This document shows, in pieces, positions 8,220 through 48,018 of a stretch of DNA of 64,000 bases (position 1 is the stretch's first letter; each line of letters starts with the position of its first letter). A model generated the notes under the pieces. It had not been told where the DNA came from. It saw nothing but the letters and a program-made list of their open reading frames with translations, and searched no databases. The position numbers and the translations under genes were made by a program. The DNA comes from Flectonema sp. DT1601 (lineage: Eukaryota): NCBI GenBank assembly GCA_964019425.1, contig OZ025794.1:62001-126000 (forward strand), written 5' to 3'.

Positions 8220-9821
<1,602 letters not shown>

Positions 9822-10601: not shown

Positions 10602-12902
10602 CTACTTCGAATACTTTGTAAAGACCTCGTTGTGATCCCTCGCGTGTCTAAGCCAGTTGAATTTGTCTCCACGAGTACCAAGTTCCAGAGAGCTGGTGAT
10701 GTTGGCTAGCTGTTTATCAAAAGACGCATGAATCAGGTTACTGTAAACGTTGATAATACACGCAATTGGAACAAACGACCAACAGTCTGAAATAAAATCC
10801 GACAATTCAGATTTTTTTCCTTCTTCAGAAAGTCCCTTAAACGCACCAATCTCATTCAGATAGGCCTCAGCAACATTAGCAATTACGTCTTTAGCCGTTT
10901 CCATTGTGATGTTTATTTCATTGCGTTGAATCTGTAGTTCCAAACTAGATATTAATTTGGCAAAATCATAAACAGCAAGAGAAGGACCGCTCCACTCGAT
11001 ATCAATAAGTGTTACCTTCGTAGGGTTCACACTATCATCTACGATTGCGTTACTTAAATTAACATCAAAGTGAGTGTAGACTATTTTGGTGCTGTATTTT
11101 GATTTTAATTTATCGTGGACCTTCTTCTTAACATCTTCAATGGTGGTGCTAGTTTCGATAACGGAGTGGTAAAATTTTGACCAAATCTCATGAGATGATA
11201 ATTTACTCTTTTCAATAACAATAATAGAATATCTTCTCCAGATCTCTAACAAAGTGTAGCAGAGTGGTTCTCCGTTTAGCTTTCCGAAGTGATGATCGAC
11301 AACATTCTTTTTAAACTGTTCATTTTCCATAGTCTGGTGGAACCGTGCTATGCTACTACCAAGACAACGAAACACCGCTGGGATGTTTGTTTTTGGATTC
11401 TTCAACGACTTGAGAAGGGTTGCTCCAGATATCCACTCTTCGATTCTCCCTAAGTGACGATCACATCCATAGTACCTCGCTTTAATGACGCAGAATTGCT
11501 TTGGACCAACACCTGCTTCTTGAAGTCCTTGAGAAACATTTCCAATAAAGTTAATTTCATCATGAATAATCCTTCTCGGTTTTTCCCAACTGTAGAACGC
11601 CATTAAAACTTTACGACAATCAGTTTGGTCTTTGCGATTCTCTTTTGAAAGTTTTACTTTGAAAACTCTCTTATCCACTAGTCTCGTCACGCACAAGTCC
11701 TCAGCTTTAACTAAACCTGTTCTCCAAGATTCAATTTTTTCAGCACAGAATGACTTTACTGCCATGTCATCTTCATTTAGCTTTGCAATATCAAGTTTTA
11801 GTCCTCGACTGATGCCGTGTCTGATGAAGAGCTTGTTCATATGACCTAAGAAGTCAGGTGTTCCTTTATATCCAGGAAGGACATTGCAGTCGACGACGTA
11901 GTGGGTTTTGTTATTTTTATCAACCAGAACATCGAACCCAAACAACTCAATATTCCATTCCAGTTCGATTGCCATTCTAAAAGTGTCAACTGTTGTCGGG
12001 TCTAAGTGTGCAGCTCCCAGTTCTGGATCGTGAATTCTCTTACAAGCAATAGCACCTTCTCTGTTTGTTATAACATCTGAATAAAATATGATGTATCCTT
12101 TACCACCAGTGTCCTTCTCATTTACGTGTTCCCCTTTTATCTCAACAGCAAAACGATCGAGCTCTTCTGGGTCCGGCGTGTCAATATCTGGAAGTGACGG
12201 ACGACCTCCAACAAATATGTGTCTCGCGATAACATAAATCTTATAAACAACACCTGAGTGAGGGATGTACTGTTCTAAAGAGTAGTGTTCACATCCAGAA
12301 TTGTCACAGAAATGTTTGAGTCCAGCGATGTCAAAAACGAGTCCCATCTTCTTAATTGCAGTTGACTTAGGTTTTACAACAATTGGAAATGGAGGCAAGT
12401 CTGAAGGGTCAGCTGGTGTTGATCTTGAGTAGTTTAACCAACTAGGAACAGCACATGCAACACCTGAGTTTGCTTTGTGAACCATAGTTGCTATTTTACG
12501 TAATAAAGCAACCATATTGTATCGATCAACAAGACAATGTTCACTCTCAATTGGAATGATGTTCAGTTCATCAAATTCAGATTTGTGTTTGGACATCAAC
12601 TCATCATATCTTCGCATTGTAGTGTCGTGAACTTCTTCTCCTCGAGAACCAAGAGCCTTATGTAATTTGCTAACAATTACGTCAGGTTTTGGATCCATCT
12701 TCTCCCACTGCTCAAGTAAGGAGTGCTGAACGTCAAGAGTCAAGACATCGACACGTCCTTCTAAGTTTTCCGCATCACCATCTTTGTACTTTTGTAGTAA
12801 CATTAATTTCCGATTTCTGTCAACAGCAAAACATGTGCACAGCCTCAGTGCACGGTCTCGTCCAAATTGACTTTTCCATGCATGCCTCGGGGATTCTGGC
12901 AT
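10602..12902 (-). CDS. ITPK1-like ATP-grasp kinase fused to choline/ethanolamine kinase-like domain, copy 1 (766 aa)
   Basis: N-half: FPIVVKP, EQYIPHSGVVYKIYV, RPSLPD, LFGFDVL, VVDCNVLPGY (ITPK1 motifs). C-half: GVGP, GRIEEWISG, IARFH, HFDVNLSN, LIDIEWS (choline kinase motifs). ATG at 12902; the track's extension runs through poly-A. Confidence 0.85.
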   Translation of the reverse strand: MPESPRHAWKSQFGRDRALRLCTCFAVDRNRKLMLLQKYKDGDAENLEGRVDVLTLDVQHSLLEQWEKMDPKPDVIVSKLHKALGSRGEEVHDTTMRRYDELMSKHKSEFDELNIIPIESEHCLVDRYNMVALLRKIATMVHKANSGVACAVPSWLNYSRSTPADPSDLPPFPIVVKPKSTAIKKMGLVFDIAGLKHFCDNSGCEHYSLEQYIPHSGVVYKIYVIARHIFVGGRPSLPDIDTPDPEELDRFAVEIKGEHVNEKDTGGKGYIIFYSDVITNREGAIACKRIHDPELGAAHLDPTTVDTFRMAIELEWNIELFGFDVLVDKNNKTHYVVDCNVLPGYKGTPDFLGHMNKLFIRHGISRGLKLDIAKLNEDDMAVKSFCAEKIESWRTGLVKAEDLCVTRLVDKRVFKVKLSKENRKDQTDCRKVLMAFYSWEKPRRIIHDEINFIGNVSQGLQEAGVGPKQFCVIKARYYGCDRHLGRIEEWISGATLLKSLKNPKTNIPAVFRCLGSSIARFHQTMENEQFKKNVVDHHFGKLNGEPLCYTLLEIWRRYSIIVIEKSKLSSHEIWSKFYHSVIETSTTIEDVKKKVHDKLKSKYSTKIVYTHFDVNLSNAIVDDSVNPTKVTLIDIEWSGPSLAVYDFAKLISSLELQIQRNEINITMETAKDVIANVAEAYLNEIGAFKGLSEEGKKSELSDFISDCWSFVPIACIINVYSNLIHASFDKQLANITSSLELGTRGDKFNWLRHARDHNEVFTKYSK

Positions 12903-12909
12903 CCTTAGT

Positions 12910-12940
<31 letters not shown>

Positions 12941-13490
12941 TGTTGTTGTATTTCCTGCCAATGAGATCAAAATAGAGAAATTTCACTAAAAAAAAAAAAC
13001 CACCAGCTAAACTACTTCACTACAACTCTTACTATCAACAGTCATACTGCAAGCTGTGATAAAAATAATACTTTCGATTGTATTTAAGAAGACCAAATGA
13101 AGAAACTCAAATCCTCACAGAAGTACAAAGCACGGATTCCAATCCCTCTTTGGTTCGAAACGTTAGACTTTCAAGCATTGAAAGAAAAAAAAACGAATTT
13201 TGAAATAATTGTTTTTAAAAGAGAAAACAACAACAACAACAAAATAGGAATTCCCCGCAACCCATATTTCTACCTTTCTTGGCTCGGACATGTTACCTGA
13301 ACAACCTTTCAAATGCAACAGAGTAACAAGCAATCGTATTGTCTAACAATCAAACTGAAGCGGTAATACGTCACAGAAATATATAATCCTAACAAAGAAA
13401 GACAAACTCAAAGATGACATAGAAGCACAAGGAAAAACGATTTCTTTAAACACAAATTTATATTCTTATTATTGAAAGCATAGCTTCGGG

Positions 13491-13668
13491 AGGGGGTGAG
13501 ACTTTGATAATGTAAAAACAGTAACAACTTTAGGGGTATTAAAAACAAAAACTAATATCAAGTACTTTGACTAAAAAAAAATATTTGTAGTTGTTAATCA
13601 AAGAAAGGTTCGTTTAAAAAAAAAAAGAAAACACAAAAAAGGGAAATTTTTTTTTTTTTGTCTTATAA
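13491..13668. repeat. Dispersed repeat family A (about 150-180 bp)
   Basis: Core ATATCAAGTACTTGACTGAAAAAATATTTGTAGTTGTTAATCAAAGAAA, also at ~13868-13990, ~40924-41066 and partially at ~7493-7570. Confidence 0.85.
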
Positions 13669-15179
13669 CTTTTTTTTTTTTTCATGTTGTAAAAGTCAGC
13701 CAGTCAACTATTGTGACTGAATCACTCCTCAGTTAACAAGTTGGGAGTGTAGTTTTTATGTTCGTAGCGAACTACAACTCTTCCACTTTTTAGATTTTTT
13801 TTTTTTTTTTTTGTTTGAAGCAGTTATCAATTTTCTGACCTGCTAACTCTATCCTTTATAAGAGGGAGTGAAACAGTAACAATTTTAGGTACAACAGGAG
13901 CAAAAAAATATCAAAGTACTTGACTGAAAAAAATATTTGTAGTTGTCAATCAAGAAAAGGTTCGTTTTAAAAAAAAAGAAAATATAAAAAGGAAAGAAAA
14001 GAGCTACAATCTCCATTCGCTAATAAGAAGAAAAAAAAAGTACAAAAAACAATAAAAGACTGGCAGGTCTCGGGAAAGCTTGGCTGAAAGAAAGAAAAAA
14101 ACAAAAAAAAAAAAAAAAAAACATGAGATAAAACATAAATACAGCTATCGCAGCATCTTTTATATTAATGCATCTTCTTTATTGTGATGACATTTTTTCC
14201 TATTGAGGTGTTAGTTTGGAATAAGAACTTCATATGATGAGAAAACACTTTCAGTCAATTTTTGAGAATAATTTGAGAAAAAGACGCGAGAGTACCCTGA
14301 TAATATATCTTTGATGTGAATATATCTTTGTTCTGGTTTGAGTTTTAATCTGCTTGCCTCTTCTTCCACTTTAATATCAACGGTTTGAATGATTCAGTTT
14401 GTGTGCGAAAACCGAAAACAAAGTGTGTTAACGTTTACCGCTCGAAAAACAGGGAAATTATCAAAAAAAATAAAATTAAAAAACAGTTATGGGTTAACTT
14501 GGCATCGATTAAAAAAAAAGGAAACGAAAATACGATTCCTTCGATCGAAAAAGGGGCACCAGTTCGCTGCAGCAGAATACGTATCTGTTTATCGTAAGAC
14601 TTCGAGCAACGGGAATAAAAGTTTTGGGGTATATATATTTTTATTTTTTTCCCTTTCATGAGAGAAAGGATATTTTTTTAAATAAAAAAAAATAAAGTAA
14701 AATACAAAAAAAAAAACTGAGACGTGATAGAAGTACATTACTATTTTTGTTAGGAGGAAAAAGTAACATTCAACCAGAATTTCACTTCTAATTTTTTTTT
14801 TTTTTTTTTTGTCAATTCGAAAACGACAATACAGTACCTAGTAATACAACAAGGGGGAATTAGGAGAGCTAAGGCAAGGTCAATAGCACAAAGCATCACA
14901 CGGAAAGGAGAGTCTTACAAGACAACAAATAAAACAATATTTCAATTGTGTTGAGGTTGTGATATGCAAGAGGGAACTGTGGTATAAAAAGAAAATAAGA
15001 AAATAATGAAATAAGTGAAAGCTACCACAGTTGACATCTTTATAAGGTCAACCGATTAGTGCTTGGTGTAGATTCGTTTTGGAATAGGAACTCTGGTCAA
15101 TACAATACAAAAGGTATTCAAAAAAAAAGAAGGCAATCAAATAATAATTTTAAAAAAAAAACGCTCTGGAGGTAATTAC

Positions 15180-17504
15180 TTAACCACTTCTGGGAACATT
15201 ATTTAACTTTGTGAAGTGCTTCTTAAATCCCGCGTAGTGATCACTCGCGTGTCTAAGCCAGTTGAAGTTCTCTCCTCTCTTCCCGAGGACTCTGTTCTCT
15301 GAGATGTCAGTGAGTTGTCCATCGAAGGATGCGTGGATGAGGTTGCTGTAGACGTTCAGAATGCAGGCGATCGGAACAAACGCCCAGCAGTCCGACAGGA
15401 AGTCAGACACCTCCGCTCCCCGCTCCTCCTCGCTCGCCCCCTCAAACGCTCCAATCTCACACAAGTAAGCCTCCACCACGTTCGTCAGCATCTCCTTCAC
15501 AGTCTCCATCGTGATGTCGATCTCCTGACGTTCGATCTGTAGCTCCAGACTCGAAATCAGCTTCGCGAAGTCGTACACCGCCAGACTCGGTCCGCTCCAC
15601 TCGATGTCGATCAGAGTCACCTTCGAAGGGTCGCAGTTGTTGTCTACGATCGCGTTGCTCAGGTTCACATCGAAGTGCGAGTACACCGTCTTCATGCTGT
15701 ACTTCGACCTCAATTTCACGTGAACCTGCTTCTTCACTTCCTCGAACGTCGTCGCAGTCTCCATGAACTCCCCACAGAACCCGCCCCACATCGGACTGTT
15801 CTTCAGCTCGCTCTTCTCCACGCTGATGATCGAACACCGACGCCAGATCTCCAACAGGCTGTAGCACAGCGGCACTCCCTCCAACTTCTGAAAGTGGTGG
15901 TCCAGAACGTCCTTCTTGAACTGCTCGTTCTCGATCGCCTTGTGGAATCGCGCTATGCTCGTCCCCAGGCAGCTGAACATCTTCCCCCGTTGCGTCGTCG
16001 GCTTCTTCAGCGCCTTCAACAGCGTCATCCCTTCCACCCACTCCTCCAACCTCCCCAGGTAACGATCACAACCGTAGTACTTCGCGTGGATGTCGCAGTA
16101 CTGGTCAGGTCCCAGTCCGGCATCGAACAGTCCCTGCGCAACGTTCCCAATGAAGTTGATCTCGTCGTGGATGATTCGACGAGGCTTCTCCCAGTTGTAG
16201 AACGCCACCAACGTCTTCCTCACCGCCAGGTCCCTCCTCGCGTCCTTCCGACACTTCACTTGGAAGATCCGACTGTCTACCAACCGACGAACCATCAGGT
16301 CCTCAACCTTCACACCCCCTTCCTTCCAAGCAGCCATCTTCTCAATGCAGAACGACCTGATCGCGTCGTCGTCTCGGTTCACCCGCGCGATGTCCTCCTG
16401 CAGTCCCTTTCGGATCCCGTGTCTGATGAAGAGCTTGTTCATGTGTCCCAGGAAGTTGGGAACTCCCTTGTACCCTGGCAGAGCATTGCAGTCGACGACG
16501 TAGTGCGTTTGGTTGTCCTTGTCAACCAGAACATCGAACCCAAACAATTCAATATTCCATTCCAGTTCGATTGCCAGTCGTAAAGTGTCTACGGTTACAG
16601 CACGCAAATTAGCGGCAGAGAGCTCCGGGTCGTTTATCCTTTTGCAGCCAATCTCTCCGTCTCTTCTTGTGATTACATCTGAGTAGAATATAATATAACC
16701 TTTACCACCTGATTGTGATTTGAGTACGTGTTGTCCTTTTATTTCTTCTGAGAATCTATCGAGTTCTGCGGGGTCAGGGTTGACGTCAATGTCTGGAAGT
16801 GAAGGACGGCCTCCGACGAAAATATGTTTTGCGATAACATAAATCTTATAAACAATACCCGAGTGAGGGATGTACTGTTCTAATGAAAAGTGTTCACAGG
16901 CAGAATTATCACAGAAATGATCCAATCCAGAAGTATCAAATACCAATCCCATCTTCTTAATTGCAGTTGACTTAGGTTTTACAACTATCGGAAATGGAGG
17001 AAGATCTGCTGGATCGAATGTCACAGATTTTGAGTATGTCATCCATTTTGGAGTAGAACACTTAATGTTACTATCACTAGCTAGAGATACTACTCTCGCC
17101 ATCCTTTGAAGAAATGTCGTCATCGAGTATCGATCAACAAGAATATGTTCGCTCTCGACAGGAATGATATTTAGTTTGTTAAAATCTGATTTATAACTTC
17201 CCATCAGTTCATTAAACTTTCTTAACGTCGTAGCGTGAACTTCTTCTTGAGGAGAACCGAGTGCCTTGTGAAGTTTACTAATAATAACATCAGGTTTTAG
17301 ATCCATCTTCTCCCACTGTTCTACTAAAGAAGACTCTGACTGACTATCGAGAGCAACGATGTCAACTCGTCCTTCTAAGTCTCTCGCATTGTTACTTTTA
17401 TATTCCTGCTGAAGCATCATTTTCCTGTTCCTATCAACAGCGAAACATGTGACCAGCTGCAGGTTTCGGTTGCGACCGAAACGACTATCCCAATTACTTA
17501 GCAT
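15180..17504 (-). CDS. ITPK1-like / choline kinase-like fusion, copy 2 (774 aa)
   Basis: Same motif set as copy 1; pyrimidine-rich AG (17528-17527) just upstream of the ATG. Confidence 0.85.
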   Translation of the reverse strand: MLSNWDSRFGRNRNLQLVTCFAVDRNRKMMLQQEYKSNNARDLEGRVDIVALDSQSESSLVEQWEKMDLKPDVIISKLHKALGSPQEEVHATTLRKFNELMGSYKSDFNKLNIIPVESEHILVDRYSMTTFLQRMARVVSLASDSNIKCSTPKWMTYSKSVTFDPADLPPFPIVVKPKSTAIKKMGLVFDTSGLDHFCDNSACEHFSLEQYIPHSGIVYKIYVIAKHIFVGGRPSLPDIDVNPDPAELDRFSEEIKGQHVLKSQSGGKGYIIFYSDVITRRDGEIGCKRINDPELSAANLRAVTVDTLRLAIELEWNIELFGFDVLVDKDNQTHYVVDCNALPGYKGVPNFLGHMNKLFIRHGIRKGLQEDIARVNRDDDAIRSFCIEKMAAWKEGGVKVEDLMVRRLVDSRIFQVKCRKDARRDLAVRKTLVAFYNWEKPRRIIHDEINFIGNVAQGLFDAGLGPDQYCDIHAKYYGCDRYLGRLEEWVEGMTLLKALKKPTTQRGKMFSCLGTSIARFHKAIENEQFKKDVLDHHFQKLEGVPLCYSLLEIWRRCSIISVEKSELKNSPMWGGFCGEFMETATTFEEVKKQVHVKLRSKYSMKTVYSHFDVNLSNAIVDNNCDPSKVTLIDIEWSGPSLAVYDFAKLISSLELQIERQEIDITMETVKEMLTNVVEAYLCEIGAFEGASEEERGAEVSDFLSDCWAFVPIACILNVYSNLIHASFDGQLTDISENRVLGKRGENFNWLRHASDHYAGFKKHFTKLNNVPRSG
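15200..16576. repeat. Near-identical 1.38 kb duplicated tract (partner 20202-21578)
   Basis: Constant offset of 5002 nt; only three substitutions noticed by eye (near 15806, 15869, 16554), none changing the protein. Confidence 0.95.
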
Positions 17505-18931
17505 TTCTATCCTTTTATAATTATATCTGGAAAGGAGAAAAGAAGGAAGTCAGAAAAGTGGAATCATCGTGTGGTCACATTTTCGACAGCAAAAATAAAA
17601 TTGCGGGTAGAGTGAAAGGTGGCGGGGGGTGAGAGATGTGGTACGTGCTGAAAATAATAAGAAACCAAAACGTGGTAAAACTAAATGAAATATTTTCACG
17701 AATGGTTTTTTTTTTTGCTTTTTTTTTTTTTTTTTTTTTCTTCTTGAGAGAATACATTACAGGCACACATAAAGCAAGCTGCTATTTTTTTCAATTCTAA
17801 TTATTTCAGTACTTTTTCTTCTTTTTTTTTTTCTTCTTTCGTTCTTTTCTTCGCTTTTTTATTTTCTTAATGGTGCTATGCCGAGGCTTGAGTTTCTTAC
17901 ATACTTTTTGTCCTAATGGTTTTTAGAAACCATCGGGAAATGCAGTTTTCACTATTACCAACTCCATCTGATAAGGAGTAATGTAGCAATCACGAGAAGG
18001 GGAAAAAAGAAAGAAAGGAAAACAATGGCAATGGGGAGCAGTGAACTATCAATTAAAATCATAAGCAATATTTTTTTTTTTTTTTTTTTTTCATTCTTTT
18101 TTTTGTTTACATGCAAAAGCAAAAATATACAGCTTTTGGTACGTTTTACAGCAAAATCATCACACCGAAAGGCGCATTTTAAAAAAAAAAAAAAAAAAAA
18201 ACAGTAAGAAAAAAGAATTCTCTCTCGTGTCAGGATATCGTTTACAGCAAAAATCCAACGGAACAATGCTCAATAACTTTATGCTATTTTCTGCTGTCCA
18301 AAATAACCAGATTGGATAACAAAAAGCCAACCAAATGAATGATGCTACTTTTATTTTATTTCAATTTTTTTTTTCTTTTTTTTTTTTTTTTTCATTCAAA
18401 GTTTGACAAAAACAACGAAAACATAAGCTCGTCCCCCTCTCCCTCCTGGAGACTCCACGAGAGGATTGAGGTAAAAGATGACCGACAATACGTTCTAATT
18501 TTAACCGGAATTGAAAGAAAAAAAAAAGAAAAAAAATCAAACCAACAATATTCAGACTTGAAGAGAAAAAAATTAAAAAGACCCCCCCCTCATGTGTTTT
18601 TCACACAGGAAAATTTTTTTTATCGAAACAAAGATCTTGGCTTGGTAACCTTCAGACATTTTGCTTCTTTTTTTCATTTTTTTTTTTTTTTTTATTTCAA
18701 AAAAAAAAAAAAAAAAAACGACACTGTCACTGCCTCATGTTAGAATGGTTGAAACAAGAAAACGTGTCGTACATATTGAGGAGAAAATAAAACCAAAATT
18801 GCTTTCCAGATGAAGAGGGGCGAGAAGCCCACCTATTTGGTTCAAGGTGACCATAAATCACAATGGATCAAACCATCAGAAAATACAAATTTGATTTTTT
18901 TAAAAAAGCTGATAGTTCATGCGAGCGACGA

Positions 18932-18972
<41 letters not shown>

Positions 18973-20181
18973 AAGGCGGAAATTTTTTCATGTGCTGCAA
19001 TTAAACTTGAATGTACACCATCCAACAACCACGACAATCGTCAAAAAAGCCTGTTGATCATTTCCGAACAATGAGCGCATCTGAGGAATAACAAATAAAA
19101 TCGGTGCGATAAACCTAAACTCAATACAATTGGAGAGGTTCAATTAAATTGATTCATAATGCCCTTTGTGCTTCTTACTCAGACAAGTCAACATCCAACA
19201 AGTCAAGGACCAGTTAAAGTAGACGTAGTTTCATTGAACTCCAATCCCAAAAGATTATTTTTGTTTCAGCAGGTAATAATTCAGCAGGTAATAAACACCA
19301 CACAGTTAGTTGAAACACAACAAAAAAACAAAACAAAAAATCGAGTTTTTTTTATAACATAAAAAAAGGTGTGCCAAAAGTTTGTTAGCAATCGTATTAG
19401 AGATACGAGGCGTGAAAGCAACAAGCAAGTAAGAAAAAAAAAAATACTACTTTTCTTCTTTCTCAAAAAAAAGTAAAAAGAAAAACATAACAAGAAACTC
19501 GCAGGTGGAAATTTGATTCATTCATATTATTGGTACTTTTAGGGGAGATTTTTTTTTGTTATGGAAAATGAAAAAAAAAGGGAAAAAAGCGAAACGGGAA
19601 TGCCTTCTTGATGCCTTGTCAACAAGTCATCAAAGCCCAAAAAAAAAAAAAAAAAAAAAAAAAAACGGGGGAAATGCATAAAGAAGTTAATATAAAGGGA
19701 ACAAGTATCGGGGAAGTTTTTTTTTTTTTTTTTTCTATATTCCAGAAAGACCACAAGGGTTGTGATCCATACACAGCAAGACTTAGCAGGAGAGGAGGCA
19801 GTATGGTGAATACACGTACAAAGACAACACAATGTAAACACAAAGTTCCAATACTACTTTTGTATCAGTTTTATTAGTTACTTTGTTCGACAACGGGAGT
19901 CGCTAAAACTTGTGTACTGCGACTCCACCCTATGTTATTTTTTTTTTTTTTTTTTTTTAAATTTTCAAAAATAAAAGGAACGAAAAGAAAAATGTAAACA
20001 AAAACAACAACAATTTGTGTGTGGGACGAAACAAACAAACCAAAAGTGAAGATGAAACTTAATTGTTAGAAACAAAAAATCAAACAGGAGTACGTAAGGC
20101 GATATTTTGCGAGGGAACAACTCACTAAGTGGTTATCATTTAAACGGATGAATTTGGAACCAACGATTGTAACGTTGGCTT

Positions 20182-22527
20182 TCATCCATTTCTGGGCATC
20201 GTATTTAACTTTGTGAAGTGCTTCTTAAATCCCGCGTAGTGATCACTCGCGTGTCTAAGCCAGTTGAAGTTCTCTCCTCTCTTCCCGAGGACTCTGTTCT
20301 CTGAGATGTCAGTGAGTTGTCCATCGAAGGATGCGTGGATGAGGTTGCTGTAGACGTTCAGAATGCAGGCGATCGGAACAAACGCCCAGCAGTCCGACAG
20401 GAAGTCAGACACCTCCGCTCCCCGCTCCTCCTCGCTCGCCCCCTCAAACGCTCCAATCTCACACAAGTAAGCCTCCACCACGTTCGTCAGCATCTCCTTC
20501 ACAGTCTCCATCGTGATGTCGATCTCCTGACGTTCGATCTGTAGCTCCAGACTCGAAATCAGCTTCGCGAAGTCGTACACCGCCAGACTCGGTCCGCTCC
20601 ACTCGATGTCGATCAGAGTCACCTTCGAAGGGTCGCAGTTGTTGTCTACGATCGCGTTGCTCAGGTTCACATCGAAGTGCGAGTACACCGTCTTCATGCT
20701 GTACTTCGACCTCAATTTCACGTGAACCTGCTTCTTCACTTCCTCGAACGTCGTCGCAGTCTCCATGAACTCCCCACAGAACCCGCCCCACATCGGACTG
20801 TTCTTCAACTCGCTCTTCTCCACGCTGATGATCGAACACCGACGCCAGATCTCCAACAGGCTGTAGCACAACGGCACTCCCTCCAACTTCTGAAAGTGGT
20901 GGTCCAGAACGTCCTTCTTGAACTGCTCGTTCTCGATCGCCTTGTGGAATCGCGCTATGCTCGTCCCCAGGCAGCTGAACATCTTCCCCCGTTGCGTCGT
21001 CGGCTTCTTCAGCGCCTTCAACAGCGTCATCCCTTCCACCCACTCCTCCAACCTCCCCAGGTAACGATCACAACCGTAGTACTTCGCGTGGATGTCGCAG
21101 TACTGGTCAGGTCCCAGTCCGGCATCGAACAGTCCCTGCGCAACGTTCCCAATGAAGTTGATCTCGTCGTGGATGATTCGACGAGGCTTCTCCCAGTTGT
21201 AGAACGCCACCAACGTCTTCCTCACCGCCAGGTCCCTCCTCGCGTCCTTCCGACACTTCACTTGGAAGATCCGACTGTCTACCAACCGACGAACCATCAG
21301 GTCCTCAACCTTCACACCCCCTTCCTTCCAAGCAGCCATCTTCTCAATGCAGAACGACCTGATCGCGTCGTCGTCTCGGTTCACCCGCGCGATGTCCTCC
21401 TGCAGTCCCTTTCGGATCCCGTGTCTGATGAAGAGCTTGTTCATGTGTCCCAGGAAGTTGGGAACTCCCTTGTACCCTGGCAGAGCATTGCAGTCGACGA
21501 CGTAGTGCGTTTGGTTGTCCTTGTCAACCAGAACATCGAACCCAAACAATTCAATGTTCCATTCCAGTTCGATTGCCATTCTAAAAGTATCGACTATAGC
21601 AGCATGGAGGTCCGGGAGGTTAAGATCTGGATCAGTAATTCTCTTTGCTTCAATATTACCCGCTCTGTTTGTAATAACATTAGATAAGAATGTAACATAA
21701 CCCAACCCCTCTGATTCAGATCCAGAGATGTATTCTCCCTTAATTTCAGTTGCAAATTCACTAAGAACCTGCGGAGTTGGTGTTCCGATGTCTGGAAGTG
21801 AAGGACGACTACCAACAAATATGTGTCTCGCGATAACATAAATTTTATAAACAACACCTGAGTGAGGGATGTACTGTTCCAATGAGAAATCATTGCATTC
21901 AGATTTATCGCAAAAGTTCTTAAGTCCGTTGACGTCAAAGACGACTCCCATCATCTTTATCGCAGTTGATTTTGGTTTTACAACAATTGGAAATGGAGGA
22001 AGATCACTTGACTTCGCAGGGTTACTTTTTGAGTAAGTCAACCATTGAGGTGTAGAGCATCCAATCGCTTCCGTGTTTCCAACTAAATTAACAACTCTTG
22101 CGATTCTCTTTAGGAATTCTGCCATCTTATATCTATCATGAAGAACGTACTCGCACTCAATTGGGATAATGTTTAATTTTTTGAATTCACTGCTCTGATC
22201 AGACTGTGCTAAACCATCGTAGTGGTGCATCGAAGTTGAATGGACCTCGTCTTCGATACTTCCGAGTGCGTTGTGCATTTTACTCACAACTAAATCTGGT
22301 TTAACGCTGAGGTCACACCACTGAGTTTTGAGGTTATTCGTTACATCTAATGAAACGACATCAATACCACCTTCGTACTCACCTTGCTTGTCTTTGTATT
22401 CTTCGTTTGTTAGCAATAATTTTCTATTTTTATCAACTGCAAAAACTGTACACAACTGCAAGTTACGACTTCTTCCAAACTGACTATCCCACGTTGAGGT
22501 GTGTGAATTAGAGGAGATTGAGGACAT
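20182..22527 (-). CDS. ITPK1-like / choline kinase-like fusion, copy 3 (781 aa)
   Basis: Same motif set. About 455 aa in the C-terminal part are identical to copy 2; the N-terminal part is diverged. Confidence 0.85.
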   Translation of the reverse strand: MSSISSNSHTSTWDSQFGRSRNLQLCTVFAVDKNRKLLLTNEEYKDKQGEYEGGIDVVSLDVTNNLKTQWCDLSVKPDLVVSKMHNALGSIEDEVHSTSMHHYDGLAQSDQSSEFKKLNIIPIECEYVLHDRYKMAEFLKRIARVVNLVGNTEAIGCSTPQWLTYSKSNPAKSSDLPPFPIVVKPKSTAIKMMGVVFDVNGLKNFCDKSECNDFSLEQYIPHSGVVYKIYVIARHIFVGSRPSLPDIGTPTPQVLSEFATEIKGEYISGSESEGLGYVTFLSNVITNRAGNIEAKRITDPDLNLPDLHAAIVDTFRMAIELEWNIELFGFDVLVDKDNQTHYVVDCNALPGYKGVPNFLGHMNKLFIRHGIRKGLQEDIARVNRDDDAIRSFCIEKMAAWKEGGVKVEDLMVRRLVDSRIFQVKCRKDARRDLAVRKTLVAFYNWEKPRRIIHDEINFIGNVAQGLFDAGLGPDQYCDIHAKYYGCDRYLGRLEEWVEGMTLLKALKKPTTQRGKMFSCLGTSIARFHKAIENEQFKKDVLDHHFQKLEGVPLCYSLLEIWRRCSIISVEKSELKNSPMWGGFCGEFMETATTFEEVKKQVHVKLRSKYSMKTVYSHFDVNLSNAIVDNNCDPSKVTLIDIEWSGPSLAVYDFAKLISSLELQIERQEIDITMETVKEMLTNVVEAYLCEIGAFEGASEEERGAEVSDFLSDCWAFVPIACILNVYSNLIHASFDGQLTDISENRVLGKRGENFNWLRHASDHYAGFKKHFTKLNTMPRNG
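20202..21578. repeat. Near-identical 1.38 kb duplicated tract (partner 15200-16576)
   Basis: Direct comparison with copy 2; identity ends at ...GATTGCCA (21578). Confidence 0.95.
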
Positions 22528-32355: not shown

Positions 32356-34587
32356 TTACTTACTATCTCTGAGAGAACATTGGAGGTGATATGCAGGTAC
32401 GGTAGTCTGTCGCTCGATTCCGATAGATTTCACATCGTCACTGTCACTGTCACTGTTGCATAATCGAGGGAAGGGAACTTGAGCACTGTAAGTAACACTT
32501 TCCTTTCTACTGTTCAGAGATGTTATTGAACATCTCTCTGGTAACATGAGACCTCCTGAGAATACTTTCGGTTCAGGAGCAATCAAATCGATAGTAACAA
32601 CAACTGTACCGTCAGCAGCTGATGTTAAGTTCGTCTTCACAATATCAGTTTGTTCCTCATCACCGATGTCATCACCTAATTCTCGTAGAGATCTTAAAAA
32701 ACCCCCTTTGTTATCATTTTGTATTATTTGAGCATGGCATTGATGTTCTACTGTAGTCATTTTTCCAAAAGGGTTTTCGTTTTGCTCTTGTTTATCACGC
32801 TGATCTGTAGCTACTGTCCTTTTGTCTGCTTCATGTACTTTGTGAAACAGATTATCACCGTGACGGGCTTCACTGTGTTGGTTCTCAGTTGTGGGCATCT
32901 CTCGTGTATCGGATTGATCTTCAGCTACTTCTTTATTTGTTGTTGTTGTTGTTGTTGTTGGTGGTGTCGGTTTGTCACTTTGAGCATTGCCTTCTGTAGT
33001 GCCTTCCAGCTCAGGTGTGGGAGCCTCTCGCGGATCAGATTGCTCTGCAATTACTTCACGTTCACTTTGAGCATTTCCTTCTGTAGTACCTTCGTATTCA
33101 GTTGTGGGTGCCTCTCGCGGATCAGATTGCTCTGCAATTACTTCACGTTCACTTTGAGCATTTCCTTCTGTAGTACCTTCGTATTCAGTTGTGGGTGCCT
33201 CTCGCGGATCAGATTGCTCTGCAATTACTTCACGTTCACTTTGAGCATTTCCTTCTGTAGTACCTTCGTATTCAGTTGTGGGTGCCTCTCGCGCATCAGA
33301 TGGCTTAGCGAGTTCCTCGGGTTGTTCAACCATTCCGTCGTCTGCTTTTACCTCCTCAGGTAGCACATGATAGTCGTCGCTGTTGTTCGTGCCTTGTTGT
33401 TCAGTTGTTAATACTTCTCCCTGATCAGATTGGACTTCAGTCATTTCTTGCAGGCAGGCGGTGGTATCTTCACGTTTCTCAGTTGTGTGTTGTACTTCAG
33501 ATATTATTTGTTCTCCCCTTGTGGATATTTCATTATCGTTTTGTATTTCAGCGGCTCCCTCCTCTTCATTAGTTTTTGAAACGGATTGGAGTTGACTTTC
33601 TTGAGGTTCGTTGGCAACAACCACTTCGTTGTTTTCATGAGAAGTAGGTGTCACTTGTTGTTGTTGCTGTTGTTGTTGTTGTTGGTGCTCTTCGTTTGTT
33701 TTGATTTCTGTTGATGAGGTCGATTGATTTTTTTCTTCTGTCGGTTGTTCAAAAGAAAGTGATTCGGTTGTTTGACTGTTCTGAATGTTGTTTGGTTTAA
33801 CAAGAGCATCGTTCTCGTTTAATAGTTTCTCCTCGAGTGAATTCGATTGAGTGTATTCATCAGGTTGTTGTGATGTAATAACATCGCGTTGTGTCTCAAT
33901 GTCATTCATCACTTTGATGTGATCCGTCGACTCTTCTCTGACAATAATCTCTCTCTTCTCATCTTCTTCTTCTCCAAAGGCGTTGGTTGCCGCACTGAAA
34001 TTCTCTTTAGTAATTCTAAGTATTTCTGCTTCTCCTAATTGAGCTTTAAATGATAAACTGATTCTCTTTGCAGTTGCTGTCTTAAAAGCGTTTGTTATAG
34101 TACAAGAAGCCCGTTGATGAACGCAATGAATAGATTCGGAAGAAACTGAAACTGCAATAGCAGCAGAGAGTGTGATTAGTGTGATTATTGTGATCGCGTC
34201 TTTGGAGTTACTTTCTCTTAACCTTTTCGCTTTCGGCGCCACAGTTGACCTGTAACAACTTTCTGAACCCTCCCTCAGCTCTGCAATCATTGTTTTGAGA
34301 ATAGTAATTTGCTGTGCCATTTCTTGTTTTTTTGGAAATTCGCAATCGCATTTACATTTTTCACAATGAATATTTACCTGTTCGTATTCTGCTGCTTGTC
34401 TTAGCTCTCTCATGAGTGTATCTCGTCTCCCGGATCTGCGGGCATGTTGTGCCATTCTGGAAATCTTTATTCGAAGACGCTGTTCTTCTCTCATGCTGCT
34501 GAAACGGATTTCACTTCCTCCGACTAAGTCACGCCCAGAGGGTGGTATCACGGGAGGTGTTGGGATCACTACTCCATCATGTCGCAT
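32356..34587 (-). CDS. Hypothetical low-complexity E/Q/T-rich protein with 29-aa tandem repeats
   Basis: 743-aa ORF; one hydrophobic stretch (AITIITLITLSAAIAVSV); poly-Q; pyrimidine-rich AG at 34594-34593 before the ATG. Confidence 0.8.
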   Translation of the reverse strand: MRHDGVVIPTPPVIPPSGRDLVGGSEIRFSSMREEQRLRIKISRMAQHARRSGRRDTLMRELRQAAEYEQVNIHCEKCKCDCEFPKKQEMAQQITILKTMIAELREGSESCYRSTVAPKAKRLRESNSKDAITIITLITLSAAIAVSVSSESIHCVHQRASCTITNAFKTATAKRISLSFKAQLGEAEILRITKENFSAATNAFGEEEDEKREIIVREESTDHIKVMNDIETQRDVITSQQPDEYTQSNSLEEKLLNENDALVKPNNIQNSQTTESLSFEQPTEEKNQSTSSTEIKTNEEHQQQQQQQQQQVTPTSHENNEVVVANEPQESQLQSVSKTNEEEGAAEIQNDNEISTRGEQIISEVQHTTEKREDTTACLQEMTEVQSDQGEVLTTEQQGTNNSDDYHVLPEEVKADDGMVEQPEELAKPSDAREAPTTEYEGTTEGNAQSEREVIAEQSDPREAPTTEYEGTTEGNAQSEREVIAEQSDPREAPTTEYEGTTEGNAQSEREVIAEQSDPREAPTPELEGTTEGNAQSDKPTPPTTTTTTTNKEVAEDQSDTREMPTTENQHSEARHGDNLFHKVHEADKRTVATDQRDKQEQNENPFGKMTTVEHQCHAQIIQNDNKGGFLRSLRELGDDIGDEEQTDIVKTNLTSAADGTVVVTIDLIAPEPKVFSGGLMLPERCSITSLNSRKESVTYSAQVPFPRLCNSDSDSDDVKSIGIERQTTVPAYHLQCSLRDSK
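32975..33301. repeat. 87-bp coding tandem repeat, about 3.8 copies
   Basis: GCCTCTCGCG recurs at 33023, 33110, 33197 and 33284; encodes PREAPTTEYEGTTEGNAQSEREVIAEQSD. Confidence 0.95.
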
Positions 34588-37500
34588 TGCTTCTGGTTAA
34601 GGAACAAATATGAAATGAAATAAACACAAGCAGCCAGTCTTTCCGATTTAACATATTCATAATGTTGTTGTTTTCTGTATTTAAAAAAAAAAAATGTAAA
34701 ACTGAATTATTACTTATTTCTTGAAATAATGAAAAGAACACGTTTTTTTTTTTTTTTTTTTTTCGTATTAAAAAAAAAAAAAAAAAGAAAGAAAGAAAAA
34801 ACGATGATACTGCCGAATGGCGATTCTTCGTTCGTGGTCTTGTGTGTGGAGCGACATACAGCACATAACTGAGATAACCCTTCCATTATATTGTTATGTT
34901 AACGCAAATAAAGGATGGTGTGTTCAGATACCGTCTATCAGACTAGGTAAGAATTAAAATGAAGGGGAAAAAACCGTGGGGGAAAAAAGAAGCAAAAAAA
35001 AGTGAAGAAACAGAGTGGAGAGGTATAGAAAAGTTCCAAAAAAGGAATAAAATTCTTTTTTTTTTTTTTTTTTTTTTTTTTCCCCGTTCATTTCTTTTTG
35101 TTGTAATAATTTGTACTTTTTTTAAAAAAAAAAAAAAACAATAGCTTACTAAGGCAGACCTCCATCAGAGTAGAGGAAAGCTTAATAGAGCTCAATTTTT
35201 TTTTTTTTTTTTTTTGAATCTGAAATAAATCATAGAAAGGGAGAGACAAGACAAAAAACTAATTCGACCTAACATGCAAGCAAAGGGGTTGAAGGCTTTG
35301 GAACTCTACTAGAGACTTGTAAGGCTATAGGGACAGAATTTGACCAAGGAACCAATATTACAGATGTTTTTTTAGTCCGCCTTCCTTTTTTTTTTTTTTT
35401 TTTTTTTCGTAGAAATTTGCAGTGATCAGTACATAGCAAAGTACATCACAAACAAAAAACAAATACAAAAAAAAAGCGAATTCTCATAACCTTAATTAAT
35501 ATAACAAAGCTGTAATAACCGTGCGATTTAAACCACACAAGGTTTAGAGAAGAAATAGACAGGGGAAATTCAGACCTACCCGAAAAAAAAGTGATGTACC
35601 ACGATTTCATTATCGTCCCAAACCAAAAGGGACGACTACAACTACAAGTTGCAAAAAGGGTAAACAAATAGGGTTAAGCGTAATTAGTAAACGTATTAAG
35701 ATGAATCCTCAAAAAAAAAAAAAACTATAACACTCGCGACAACTGGACATGCAGCACAAAATATTGTTTTGTTTTGTTTTTTTTTTTCCCTCCCATCTTT
35801 CATCCCAACACGAAAAGTTTATTACCCTTTTTTTTTTTTTTTTTTTTTTTTTTCCCGCCTTAACAAGGAAGTTTTAGTGCCAAATTGTGATTGAATTGTT
35901 TTTCATAGAAACAGAAATAATCATAAGAGGTACGTGTGATCTCACAACAAGAAATGGTGATGCCGTTACTCAACAAACACCGTTAGCTCAGTAATAGAAT
36001 AAAATAGAGACAGAGAAAACAGATAAAACTTGTACTTGAAAAAAACTAAATGGGAGAAGGGGGAAAAAAAAAATTTAAAAAAATACACGTTTTCCCTTCG
36101 CAACATAAAAACGCTCAGCTATACAACTTGCCTTGGCGATGCCAGGTGTCCTAAGGCAGCTCAGTGAGAGCTAAGTGTAAAAACCTGTTCGAAACGTCAG
36201 TACCGACCCACGTTAGTCATACACTACTATGCAGACGCCTGTCGGCTACAAGAGGGAGGACTAAAATGCAAGAAAGCGTATTAATAGCGTTCACATCATT
36301 TTCTTGAAACTCAACCGTTATAGCTGACAAGGCACACTACCAGTAAGGGGGGTGAAAAAAAAAAAAAGTGCAAGAGAAAAAAACACCTAGGGTAACAAGG
36401 ACAAGAAAAACCCATCGCCTAACCACAAACTCACAAAAGTTAGTTGCGGTCCATACCCTATATATCTAGCTAGATATTTTGGTAAAGTTGGATGGCAGTC
36501 GACTTAATTAGTTCAGGGTACCTCTTGCACCCTCTCCATGAGATTTTTATAATCCAATTAAATAAAATAAAATAAAAAGAGGAATCGTCAGTAGTAACCC
36601 AACAGTCAAGCTGGGATAAACAACGAAGCCAATTTGCTATGAAAAAGTAATTATTTTTTTTTTTTTTTTTTTCCCCTTCCGGGACTTCACATTTTGTTTG
36701 CTTCTGCTTTACTTTTTTTTTTTTTTTTTTTCTTGGTTGTATTTTTTTTGTTATTGTCAACATAAACATAACTAAAAAAAGAAAACTCTGCAGAGAAAAA
36801 AAAAGAAAAAAAAAAGAGAAATAAAATTTTGCGGGTTCAAATATTCATACTACTCACGCATACCTAATTATTGCCGTCTTCAACAACAATGCTGGTCATT
36901 CCGCTGTTATACTTCTTGTTTTTTTTTTTTCTTTTTTCCCATGCCGCAGGAAAGCTCTAAGGGGTACTAGAGAAAATGTATCACAAAAAAAGTGTTATCC
37001 GTGCATGGTGACCAAGCAGGTATTATTGGTTGATTGAGAATTGTGTTTAAAAAACATATTAAGGAAAGTAAAATGATAAATAAAAAAGAAACTTTAGAAA
37101 TAGTTAATATTTTGGTTTTTCTTTTTTTTTTTTTTTAAAAAATGGATTTCATTATTTTTTACCAATTATACCTTTTTTTTTTTTTTTTTTTTTTTCACCT
37201 CATATATTTTGGTTTTTTTTTTTTGTTCGATTTAAAAAAAAAAAAAAAAAATAGATAGTATACTGCTTGAGTTGCCCCTTAACTTAACAAAAAAAAGACA
37301 AAAGTAAGTGGGGAAAGTAACTGAAAGACACAGTGAAAAGAGCCGTGAAAAGAGCCCTTCCTTAAAAGCGAGTGAGCCATAGATGTTCATTTTATTTATT
37401 TTTTTCATTTATGATCAAATCCCAACCAAATTAAAAAAAAAACACCAACGTGGACAAAAGTGATAACAAAACAAAACATGAAACCAAGAAAATACAAAAT

Positions 37501-37591
37501 AGGCATGAAAACGTTGGGCCTTTTTTTTTTTTTTTTTTAAATGATTTTTTAGGAAAGAAAATTCGCTTTTAGAATCGTGAAACTTACGGGA

Positions 37592-37750
37592 TTAATTGTT
37601 TGATTTCGTACGTAAAAATACAAATGTATTGTATCATAAACAAGATAAACAATAATTTAACATTAGTTTTAGATACAGTCGACTAAAGACAATGCTAGCG
37701 TAGGCACGTTTTACGGAATCGGGTTATTCAATTACGAATTAATCCCGAGC
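37592..37750. repeat. Dispersed repeat family C (about 160 bp)
   Basis: Aligns with ~41488-41724 (which has an extra internal segment): GTACGTAAAATACAAA..ATAATTTAACATTAGTT..TACGGAATCG.GTTATTCAATTAC. A 5' fragment lies at ~41946-41976. Confidence 0.85.
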
Positions 37751-38337
37751 CCTGGCTTACGGGGGAATTATTTTCTTTCTTTCTTTTTTTTTTTTTTTTT
37801 TTTTAGTTGAAGTCAGGGAAGTCAAAATCTCTGGGAAGCTCACGGGGGTAACAGTAATTCAGCTGAGACTCTCACAAGCGAGAAGTTAGTCAGAAGTAAG
37901 TGACGACCCTAACCTAACTCAATATTACACAGCCGTAAAACTGTTTTTTTTTTTTTTAAAGATTTTTTCCTGCTCAAAATAGTTAGTATTAAAAGTTATC
38001 AGTCAATCGAAAAAACCGTTAGTTAGTTAAATAGCAACAACGGATTAATAAAAGACAACCCCACCTAACTAACGGTGCATACCAAAATAAAAAAGAGAGA
38101 CAAGTTTGAGATTTAGAGGATGGCAAATATTTTCTTATAGACGTGGCATCGAGCTCATCGTGAATATTATTATCATTACTCAGTTTTTACTTTTTCGTCT
38201 CTTAGGAAAATTGAAATACACAAAAATGTAAAACAACCTTTCCATTCTTCAGACTCTGAATGTTGTCTCTACACAGCAACAGGGAAGACCCGGAGAGCTG
38301 GAGAGAGTATTTCTTTTTTCGGTGTGATTTTTTATTT

Positions 38338-38408
38338 ACTTATTTACGAAGCCTAGGAAGCCAAAAATTAGGAAACGCTCAACAGAGGAAACAGTCAGAT
38401 CGCTACCA
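38338..38408. repeat. Dispersed repeat family B (about 70-110 bp)
   Basis: TATTTACGAAGCCTAGGAAGCCAAAAA..GCTCAACAG also at ~23526-23590 and ~39682-39750; related variants at ~37806-37916 and ~59426-59497. Confidence 0.8.
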
Positions 38409-40493
38409 GTCAACTGGTGACGGATGGCACTCCCTCGCTAATAACTAAAACCCGTTTTTGATAAGAAATGCTTTAAAAGAAAATGAAAAAAATAATATTA
38501 ATAATAAATAACAATAGGCGACTAAACCTACCAGCTGACAACAACAAAAGCAACGTTGCGCAGCGAACTGTATACACAAATAGAAGAAAGAAGGAACCAA
38601 CGAATATAAAACACTCGTCAGAATACCCTTAGTTGGTACCAACAGAGGAAGCCTAGTAGGTGAATTCTCCTGTGACTACAAAGTCTATGAATGTGTGTAG
38701 CAAGTTGAGAAAACATAAATAGGTTTTTAAATACAGGGAAAAAATGTGTTTAAAAAAATTGCACCCAAGCTGTTTAGAAAGATATGCAACACTCTTAAGT
38801 AGGACTTAAACGATAATTGAAGCGTGCTAGCGTCACTTGCAGAAGAAGTCGAGTCCTCCACACCAATACAGAACTGGGAAGGGAAACAATTTTTTTTGTT
38901 TTTTTTTTCTCCCACACGGATGATGCCACTGCTTTCAGACAACATGAACAAAAAACAGTGAAAAATAAAATAAAAGACTCTTTGAAATTCCAACCAAGGA
39001 ATAAGTTGTCGATCCGTAGTTTACCTCGTTGCCCACCAGACAGACTGTGGACAAGTATTATGGAGACGTAATTGCGAAGCATAAGATGAGGAAAGATGAA
39101 ATTACAGGTCGCATAAGATAAATGTAAAACAGAATTAGTTGAAAGTTCTATAGGAAGACACATCAGCATAATACTCTATTGTTAACATAATATTGTCAAA
39201 AGAGAGAGGGGGACTTGGTGGGATAAATAAATCAAGGTTAACACGCAACAAATCAAAATCACATGCTTCAAACTACTAAAGAGAGGGGGGTTTGTGTTGT
39301 GAGTCACGCAGCTACATTATGAATTTATCAAAACACATCCCCAACCAAACATAAACAGCATGAGAGCATTACTGATAATACTTTTAGTGACCTTGATGAA
39401 AGACGACCACAGCAATATTGATGTACCACTCGCATTCATGACCCAGAATAGACAACGCTAAGAGTCATTAAAGACAAAGGAATACATGTATTTCTTATTA
39501 TAAAAAAGCACGTCATAGATGACATAAGATGTTCACCTACAACATAATTCAGCCGTGCCTCAATTTTAGCGAAGTATTAGACCCTTGTTTTATTTCCTTT
39601 TTTTCCTTTTTTTTTTTTTTTTTTTTTCTCGATTTATTGGGAGGTACAAGACATAAACTGTCTCATTCACTCATTTATTGATTTATTTACGAAACCTAGG
39701 AAGCCAAAAATCAGGAAAAGCTCAACAGGGTAACAGTTTGATAGTTACCAACCGTCAGTATTATACACATTGTCGTAATACATAATAAAACAAAATTTAA
39801 TAACACTCTCCAAAGCTGGTTCCTTTGCGAGTCTACGGGGTGAGTAGTTAAAATAAGCATTAAGTTTAAACTGAAAAAATGAAGATAAAGCTTCATTTTT
39901 AGAATAGCAGCATTTTGTGAGTCTACAGGGAAGAGGAGAGGGCGGAAAAAAAAAAAAAAAAAAAAAATGTGACTCTGCACACTTTAGTTCTCGCAGTTTT
40001 AAAAAAAAAAAAAAACTTTTTTTTTTTTTCGAATAAAGTTTCAAATGCAGAGAGCAATAAAAGTAACACAAGGAAACACGGCAAAACACGAACATCAGCA
40101 AGATAGATCAGTCACCCTTTCTACATGAAGAGGGTTACGTAAACCAACACTGCGAAGTCATCTCACTTCAACCCGTCACAAACAAACAGACACACATGTA
40201 TGAGGCAACTAGCCGATGAAATCACAACTTCCTTATCGCTAAAACAACACGGATTTCTTCGAAAGAAAGCTGCAGTTGGGGGGCTAAGCCAACGCAAAGA
40301 ACGACATCTGAGCAAGTAGTTGGTTATGTAATCCAACGTTGCTACGATATTATGAATTGCAATACCCCCCCACATGTGACGGGAGAAAAGAACACTAGTT
40401 TAATTCCCCCCAAAAAAAAAAAAAAAATTTGTACTAGATAAACTTATTGATATTGTCAAAACACTGAAAGTCGGTTGTTGTTTTTTTTTTTTT

Positions 40494-40655
40494 GCATTCA
40501 ACAAGTATTGTAAGAACGAAAAAGAATGTTAGCAGCACACGTAAACCTCCTTTAGCTTTACCAGTAAGTCGGTTCACGGTTTCCTGCACAAACTCACAGA
40601 AAAATCACAGTGTTATATTACTATTTTCTGTATAGTTGAAGATAAAGCCAATTCT
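40494..40655 (+). repeat. Dispersed repeat family D copy
   Basis: Direct match to 60441-60590; flanked by T-runs. Confidence 0.9.
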
Positions 40656-40923
40656 TTTTTTACAAATTTATGTAATCATCGTTAACAAAAAAAAAAAAAA
40701 AAAAGTCCATAAGTTATAAAAAGATTTAGTACAATAAAAAAAAAAAAAATAACATCAATTTGGTTACTAGGAGAGAGAATTTTTTTTTTTGGAAACGTGG
40801 AGCCTGCTTTCACTAACAGAAGCAAAATGAAAGATTAAATAAATAACATGATAACCCTTTAATAAAGGGCAACGTGAACTACTAATTACTTTCCAACTGG
40901 GCCGTCTGCGCAGTGCGCAGTCG

Positions 40924-41066
40924 AAGGGGTGAAACTTTGACAATGTAAAAACAAAATTAATACCAAGTACTTGATTGAAAAATATTTGTAGTTGTTAATC
41001 AAAGAAAAATTACGTTTAGAAAAATGAAAACATAAAAGAGAAAACTATATTTTTTTTGTCTTATTG
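40924..41066. repeat. Dispersed repeat family A copy
   Basis: Shares the GGGGTGAAACTTTGACAATGTAAAAACA start and the core with the 13491 copy. Confidence 0.85.
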
Positions 41067-44502: not shown

Positions 44503-44537
<35 letters not shown>

Positions 44538-47491: not shown

Positions 47492-47540
47492 GAAGAAGAG
47501 GACGAAGAAGAGGACGAAGAAGAGGACGAAGAAGAAGAGG
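47492..47540. repeat. 12-bp tandem repeat (GAAGAAGAGGAC)n, about 4 copies
   Basis: Visible directly; non-coding context. Confidence 0.85.

Positions 47541-47987: not shown

Positions 47988-48018
<31 letters not shown>

Follow-up and report, generated by a model that had tools for sequence, protein, structure and literature searches.

Within the 64,000-nucleotide window of Flectonema sp. DT1601 DNA that was analysed (contig OZ025794.1, positions 62,001 to 126,000), three genes, designated g1, g2 and g3, each join an ITPK1-type domain (N-half) to a domain of choline kinase fold (C-domain). The genes, and the domains as placed in g2, are as follows, in positions of the window.

10602..12902, minus strand: g1, fusion of ITPK1 and choline-kinase-fold domains, 766 aa, orthologous to ORF P0003 of the Flectonema neradi transcriptome
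15180..17504, minus strand: g2, fusion, 774 aa, N-part clustering with g1 and C-part common to g3
20182..22527, minus strand: g3, fusion, 781 aa, N-part most divergent
16410..17504, minus strand: ITPK1-type ATP-grasp domain of g2, residues ~1-365, placed by alignment to human ITPK1
15210..16379, minus strand: choline-kinase-fold domain of g2, residues 376-765, placed by structure model and by profile and structure matches

Both domains scored above the curated Pfam cut-offs in all three genes, PF05770 (ITPK1) at 55.9-59.5 bits against a cut-off of 23 over residues ~171-362 and PF01633 (choline/ethanolamine kinase) at 39.8-52.7 bits against a cut-off of 29 over residues ~413-733. The three intact ORFs of 766-781 aa, each joining two kinases, that had been described in an earlier note on this DNA were found, and a complete ORF from the F. 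neradi transcriptome, 82% identical to g1 with no gaps across 766 aa, supported the single reading frame. Because g1 matches this transcript ORF without gaps, the intronless ORF is not the product of two genes having been joined in error. A pyrimidine tract followed by AG, located 22-83 nt 5' of the ATG in each of g1, g2 and g3, is likely from its sequence to be a trans-splice acceptor. No further copy of the fusion was detected by tblastn in the 64-kb window. The minus strand carries 19 of the 20 window ORFs of at least 150 aa. Neighbours of the fusion genes were alpha-tubulin, tubulin cofactor C, PIG-X, MoaE and peptidase M3, and no pathway link with these was seen.

The earlier note had treated the genes as three paralogues. 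Three genes are indeed present, but they are not independent, as three synonymous changes are all that separates g2 from g3 over a stretch of 1377 bp. The two copies of this homogenised tract, for which no strand is assigned, are located as follows.

15200..16576: 1377-bp tract in g2, differing from g3 at 3 synonymous sites
20202..21578: matching tract in g3 (the g2 stretch +5002)

The tract, which spans the last catalytic strands of the ITPK domain and the entire C-domain, was 99.8% identical between g2 and g3 over 1.4 kb, as opposed to merely ~50-75% identity (50-column windows) over the first ~310 codons. Its GC3 was ~0.6-0.9 compared with 0.24-0.37 in 16 other window ORFs, including g1; alpha-tubulin in the same window had a GC3 of 0.60. 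Outside the tract, g2 clustered in a tree with g1 and Flectonema while g3 fell outside. These patterns suggest that the tract is likely a product of long-running GC-biased gene conversion, and the triplet would represent ordinary tandem duplication with concerted evolution between g2 and g3. There was no support for g2 having arisen by a recent unequal crossover, since the two intergenic spacers were without similarity and g1 and g2 were well diverged in their N-parts; an old crossover is possible.

The near identity of g2 and g3 across the tract is also what might be expected if the fusion or the triplet were an artefact of assembly. Against this, the fusion occurs in several transcriptomes, the shift in GC3 is confined to the tract, and contigs of run X1 stop right beside the three synonymous differences (15805, 15870 and 21555). 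Three of the eight X1 contig pieces displayed fall in the tract, are free of mismatches and end next to these differences, as expected if both variants of the tract are present in the reads, although X1 possibly derives from the sample that was sequenced and allelic variants would give the same picture. An assembly artefact is therefore barely conceivable.

Distribution of the fusion

A domain-architecture search, suggested in the earlier note, revealed a family across diplonemids and Picozoa that the note had not foreseen. Four further diplonemids, F. neradi, D. ambulator, D. japonicum and R. humris, had complete fusion ORFs in their transcriptomes, and Diplonema papillatum has two fusion proteins, each encoded by a contig of 387,829 nt, which are named at NCBI as inositol-tetrakisphosphate 1-kinase only. 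The first search, of 7,997 candidates, yielded nine proteins, of which two belong to the window and the other seven are relatives that come from F. neradi, D. ambulator (two), D. japonicum (two), D. papillatum and a cluster that includes R. humris. The full HMMER search gave 348 matches at E <=0.001, and more distant two-domain members were noted among the best 150 of these 348. These included full-length fusions from Picozoa COSAG02 (P0014) and COSAG01 (P0181), two adjacent gene models in Picozoa SAG31, and metagenomic members without a taxon, i.e., P0012 (a cluster of 88 members), P0013, P0015, P0018, P0019 and P0032. HMMs built from the family and run on 197 collected proteins identified both domains in 39 (many of them near-copies of P0012), the C-domain only in 20 (mostly fragments) and the ITPK domain only in 137. 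Profile searches of a large protein collection, with ~8,000 candidates scored, added little beyond the first matches.

In a FastTree of 107 ITPK domains, from which near-copies and rows outside 230-700 aa, P0012 included, were left out, 19 rows of the fusion family were separated from the 88 others by a branch with support of 94. Separate trees of the N-half and of the C-half (the latter a quick version) both recovered the diplonemids, a P0012/P0013 group and a Picozoa group. Because the ITPK halves group together and the two trees give the same main groups, a single origin of the fusion is tenable, and these sequences may all descend from one such event. The sharing of the fusion between diplonemids and Picozoa may reflect transfer between eukaryotes or many losses. 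Linkage of the two domains is not obligatory, since relatives that look stand-alone were also noted (P0024, 376 aa, ITPK only; P0182, 423 aa, C-domain only), either of which is possibly truncated.

Scans elsewhere confirmed no relative among viral contigs (0/8 pattern matches with a P0012 query and 0/31 with a C-lobe alignment), prokaryote genomes (0/38) or JGI metagenome contigs (0/82 and 0/48), and the best E values on plasmids were 2 and 4; because these scans required near-exact motifs, such absence is weak evidence. A viral fold search returned only ordinary choline-kinase-like proteins. In the full-text literature searched, which was mostly non-subscription and came without supplements, so that an entry in a genome-paper table could be missed, no description was found of this ITPK1/choline-kinase fusion, and choline is unmentioned in the available portions of PMC7052976 and PMC8024741. 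The fusion is real, conserved and, as the earlier note had supposed, apparently undescribed.

Catalytic machinery of the two halves

The best PDB matches of the N-half were to ITPK1 (human 2Q7D, 2QB5 and 2ODT), in agreement with the earlier assignment from motifs. By alignment, human K59, R106, K157, H193 and K199 correspond to K77, R125, K176, H214 and K220 of g2, and human R212, D281, D295, N297 and G301 to R233, D324, D338, N340 and G344. The metal and ATP ligands (human K157, D281, D295, N297 and R106) were kept in all three copies. Also kept were the inositol-phosphate contacts K199, R212, K59 and G301 from the residue list in PMC6900528, but not H167, which is replaced by another basic residue (K183) in all diplonemid rows. 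TcITPK1, the ITPK1 of T. cruzi and a stand-alone protein of 419 aa, is reported to be functional though it lacks another of the three contacts (PMC12077091). Compared with human ITPK1 and TcITPK1, the fusion shares the ATP-grasp domain, the metal ligands and most inositol-phosphate contacts but differs by Lys in place of H167, a shortened H162 loop and the addition of a 390-aa kinase domain. From the residues retained, we infer that the N-half is an active ITPK1-type kinase.

Modelling of the C-domain (g2 residues 376-765) from a 36-row alignment gave a pLDDT of 94 and a pTM of 0.92, compared with a pLDDT of 35 for a single-sequence fold of the full-length fusion. Structure prediction and Foldseek, also suggested in the earlier note, identified a choline kinase fold, the best match being choline kinase 6YXS (Z 31.1, rmsd 2.9, 331 residues aligned; Foldseek E 7e-12). 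The top structural matches were eukaryotic choline kinases (Z 31.1, 29.6 and 27.8), followed by homoserine kinase, and matches were also noted to N-acetylhexosamine kinase (Z 20.5, rmsd 3.8, 306 aligned) and APH-type enzymes. Sequence profiles of the C-domain ranked apicomplexan choline kinases first (E 3e-19), NCBIfam contained no match to it, and an Atlas search returned generic choline-kinase/APH clusters. Thus, the C-domain has the same whole-domain fold as choline/ethanolamine kinases (Plasmodium 6YXS/3C5I, Cryptosporidium 3MES and human CKalpha/beta; Z 26-31) and shares with them an N-terminal helix, the Brenner motif and the Mg ligands, but differs in having only 14-17% sequence identity, a polar amine pocket and a 9-residue insert before the hinge strand. 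The motifs quoted in the earlier note were present, except that GRIEE occurs in g1 whereas g2 and g3 have GRLEE.

Human choline kinase residues D306, N311, D330 and E332 correspond to D612, N617, D633 and E635 of g2. Among 32 rows, from which the decayed paralogues, g3 and P0003 were excluded, these catalytic residues were kept in 25/25, 24/25, 26/26 and 26/26, respectively. The strand-3 basic residue (human Arg146), which contacts the alpha-phosphate in human choline kinase and is reported to be conserved to a very high degree throughout the superfamily (PMC1261164), is missing from diplonemid C-domains, being A, T or S in 9/9 intact diplonemid rows (A434 in g2), as opposed to K or R in 13/14 non-diplonemid rows; Picozoa retain both the Arg and the loop Asn. 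The glycine-rich loop is three residues shorter in the diplonemid and P0012-type proteins, and the positions of human Ser121, which is reported to be essential (PMC4364537), and Asn122 are D410 and S411 in g2. Judging by these substitutions, the ATP-binding N-lobe is altered in the diplonemid copies. The strand-3 basic residue and the glycine-rich loop are important to catalysis, both in choline kinase and in the superfamily at large, and their changes in diplonemids count against a reading of the C-domain as an inositol kinase. A conserved residue adjoining the loop, R412, may compensate for the missing strand-3 basic residue.

Evidence of separate constraint on the two halves was obtained from decayed members of the family. 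Decayed paralogues from D. ambulator and D. japonicum, both of which were excluded when the C-site was defined, kept 3 of the 18 C-site residues and lost 15, whereas 67/115 and 58/115 of the other invariant C columns were kept (Fisher p 0.002 and 0.01, respectively), as were 88-92 of 100 invariant N columns. The opposite decay was seen in P0032, from which the ITPK metal ligands are gone while the C-site is largely retained. Because these proteins degrade opposite halves, each half bears its own selected site. All 18 site residues were invariant in intact copies, but family conservation had been used to choose the site, which makes this result partly circular, and it is given no weight here.

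These observations bear on whether the diplonemid C-domain could instead be a weak or inactive kinase that binds ligand and nucleotide and thereby regulates or dimerises the ITPK domain. The loss of the strand-3 basic residue from all nine intact diplonemid rows and the shortened glycine-rich loop are consistent with such a role, for which the probably inactive HAD domain of plant ITPK4 provides a precedent (PMC7614388). However, the 8 intact copies tested showed no variation in the Mg ligands and catalytic Asp, in contrast to the decayed paralogues, and both the Arg and loop Asn of the Picozoa proteins and the conserved R412 beside the loop argue for catalysis. We consider a regulatory C-domain improbable.

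The substrate pocket of the C-domain

Differences from choline kinase were noted in the residues of the substrate pocket. In printed alignments, human E349, the equivalent of the LicA residue E213 that forms a pair with the ammonium of choline (PMC4364537), is replaced by S652 in 27/29 rows, such that the carboxylate for ammonium is absent. Human N345 is replaced by K648 in 26/29 rows, the position of human Y354 (657) is variable and non-aromatic in 29/29, and human Y333 and N305 are W636 and F611, respectively. The rest of the pocket consists of a conserved polar set (N717 in 25/27 rows, S720 in 27/28, N721 in 28/28, H724 in 27/28, H752 in 24/26 and H756 in 26/26), and N748 and W749 are likewise nearly invariant in the family. 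Given an FVPV/FVPI anchor to 1NW1, Pfam coordinates and published spacing, we take N717, S720 and H752 to be the putative counterparts of human W420, W423 and Y440, in a register that is provisional. The latter three residues are part of the aromatic cage for choline (PMC4814829), and the Trp420/Trp423/Tyr440 cage appears to have been lost. Thus, the choline pocket is predicted to have been rebuilt from acidic and aromatic to polar, for a sugar-like substrate. A variant pocket, with K648 replaced by N and N717 by H, occurs in P0016 and P0030.

Because a conserved polar set takes the place of the Glu that binds ammonium and, probably, of the aromatic cage, the C-domain is not filed here as a choline/ethanolamine kinase. 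The earlier assignment to that family stands with respect to the PF01633 score and the fold (Z 31.1) but not with respect to amine binding, for which the residues are replaced family-wide. The same replacement, across the whole family, speaks against the earlier suggestion that the fusion couples inositol-phosphate output to lipid synthesis by the Kennedy pathway. Such coupling by a domain that is still a choline/ethanolamine kinase would fit with the nearest solved folds, the Pfam family and the Trp at the position of Tyr333, but it is quite improbable given the Ser in place of the amine-pairing Glu in 27/29 rows, the entry of Lys into the pocket in 26/29 and the polar residues at the positions provisionally mapped to the aromatic cage.

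Proposed function and alternatives

Recombinant ITPK1 was reported to have no activity on inositol, and an inositol kinase together with ITPK1 produced IP5 in vitro (PMC6900528; also PMC8024741) and rescued plc1 isc1 yeast (PMC6900528). Plant ITPK1 was reported to convert Ins3P or Ins1P to InsP5 (PMC7618535). Because ITPK1 cannot phosphorylate free inositol, phosphorylation of myo-inositol is the likeliest job of the C-domain. In the mechanism proposed, each gene would encode one two-domain protein, a bifunctional kinase, the C-domain of which would first phosphorylate free myo-inositol, or a close cyclitol, after which the ITPK1 domain would carry the product on to InsP4/InsP5, with no need of lipids or phospholipase C. 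This agrees with the first mechanism suggested in the earlier note, in which a polyol phosphorylated by the C-half is then extended by the ATP-grasp half. This combination of priming by a retooled C-domain and extension by the ITPK1 domain is our preferred reading, with a chance of being correct that falls slightly short of even. The substrate of the C-domain, its activity in diplonemids and the hand-over between the two sites are predictions from the features described above.

The pocket also has a bearing on two other possible substrates. A site for InsP5 is expected to bear several Lys or Arg residues, and only one conserved Lys is present at the pocket. This argues against the C-domain as an alternative InsP5 2-kinase that finishes the pathway, with one protein making InsP6 from InsP1, and renders it highly improbable, even though ITPK1 is reported to halt at Ins(1,3,4,5,6)P5 such that IPK1 is needed (PMC7618535), and loss of IPPK is reported to be frequent, with another route having been postulated (PMC8024741). 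A more serious, though still unlikely, alternative is that the C-domain actively phosphorylates a different hydroxyl-rich compound, such as a sugar or another polyol, or a lightly phosphorylated one, such as InsP1-InsP3 at a ring position beyond those of ITPK, and works alongside the ITPK domain rather than priming it. The fold is used by many sugar and alcohol kinases, the polar pocket suits many sugars and polyols and not inositol alone, one Lys and three His in this pocket could hold a phosphate, and the variant pocket of P0016/P0030 hints at more than one substrate. On the other hand, the main clades of the family retain the fusion to ITPK, and priming is the very step that ITPK1 lacks (PMC6900528).

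Comparison with other kinases places the proposed myo-inositol kinase in an unrelated fold from those already described. The activity proposed for the C-domain is that of maize MIK/lpa3 and Thermococcus TK2285, which prime ITPK1, but these known inositol kinases are separate proteins of the ribokinase family (PMC6900528) whereas the C-domain is protein-kinase-like over its whole length. This fold lowers the case for membership of the C-domain in the ribokinase family but not the claim that it works like such an enzyme. N-acetylhexosamine 1-kinase (4OCJ) and other sugar and alcohol kinases of APH/ChoK fold use the same fold for a hydroxyl-rich substrate (Z 20.5), although they are more distant (8% identity) and the likeness is at the level of fold. 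An ATP-grasp inositol kinase with a second domain is also found in plant ITPK4 (HAD plus ATP-grasp) and, according to the accounts consulted, in PPIP5K/VIH (ATP-grasp plus phosphatase), but the second domain of these proteins has a phosphatase-type fold while that of the fusion is a second kinase.

In its fullest form, the proposal is that the C-domain would be the first myo-inositol kinase on a choline kinase fold and that one polypeptide would carry free, scavenged inositol to InsP5, a route common to diplonemids and Picozoa, which are far-apart lineages of marine heterotrophic protists, probably by gene transfer between eukaryotes; this is put forward tentatively, as doubt outweighs belief. 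The lipid-independent inositol-phosphate pathway needs a priming step, since free inositol is no substrate for ITPK1, and the conserved fusion singles out a particular candidate for a new enzyme of this kind. If the proposal is true, the cation cage of a choline kinase scaffold has been converted into a site for polyols, and a single enzyme could lead all the way to InsP5. Should the substrate be different, the C-domain, with its clearly delimited pocket, would still represent a kinase subfamily not described before.

Composition of the tandem genes

Within two of the tandem fusion genes, g2 and g3, GC3 jumped sharply from approximately 0.3 to approximately 0.8 (at 15200-16576 and 20202-21578), and this step coincided with the homogenised tract common to both genes. 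Step and tract together are a candidate for a clean diplonemid case of GC-biased gene conversion. In the spacer between g2 and g1, a stretch of about 130 bp was duplicated locally (13516-13646 and 13871-13995, 82% identical).

Other features of the window

8511-9806, minus strand: alpha-tubulin, late GT-AG intron followed by C-terminal exon
32356-34587, minus strand: 743-aa low-complexity protein, acidic repeat
34600-48200, minus-strand genes on both sides: ORF-poor stretch, 13.6 kb
48279-51023, minus strand: 914-aa protein, two hydrophobic segments

GC3 of alpha-tubulin was 0.60, far higher than in its neighbours, and the intron of this gene, upstream of the C-terminal exon, ran from about 8572 to 8340. 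The acidic repeat unit of the 743-aa protein, for which a Pfam search returned no match, was approximately 30 aa long and present in about four copies. No ATG-started ORF of at least 150 aa was found in the ORF-poor stretch. The 914-aa protein had no Pfam match at E 0.1; its C-terminal part may be similar to receptor-type nucleotide cyclases.

Domain decay and pocket variants in the family

Abundant intronless, lineage-unassigned relatives formed the P0012 (88 members) and P0024 (34 members) clusters; the contigs that carried them were in many cases about 5 kb long. P0024 consisted of ITPK alone, the protein ending at the domain boundary, and P0182, a 423-aa MMETSP transcript product, may be a stand-alone C-domain (the choline-kinase-fold half). 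A variant C-domain pocket was noted in P0016 and P0030 (K648 to N and N717 to H, g2 numbering).

In the D. ambulator and D. japonicum paralogues (P0008 and P0009), the C-domain was predicted to be dead and ITPK live, while in P0032 ITPK was degenerate and the C-domain site mostly intact. Decay in the fusion family is predicted to be reciprocal.
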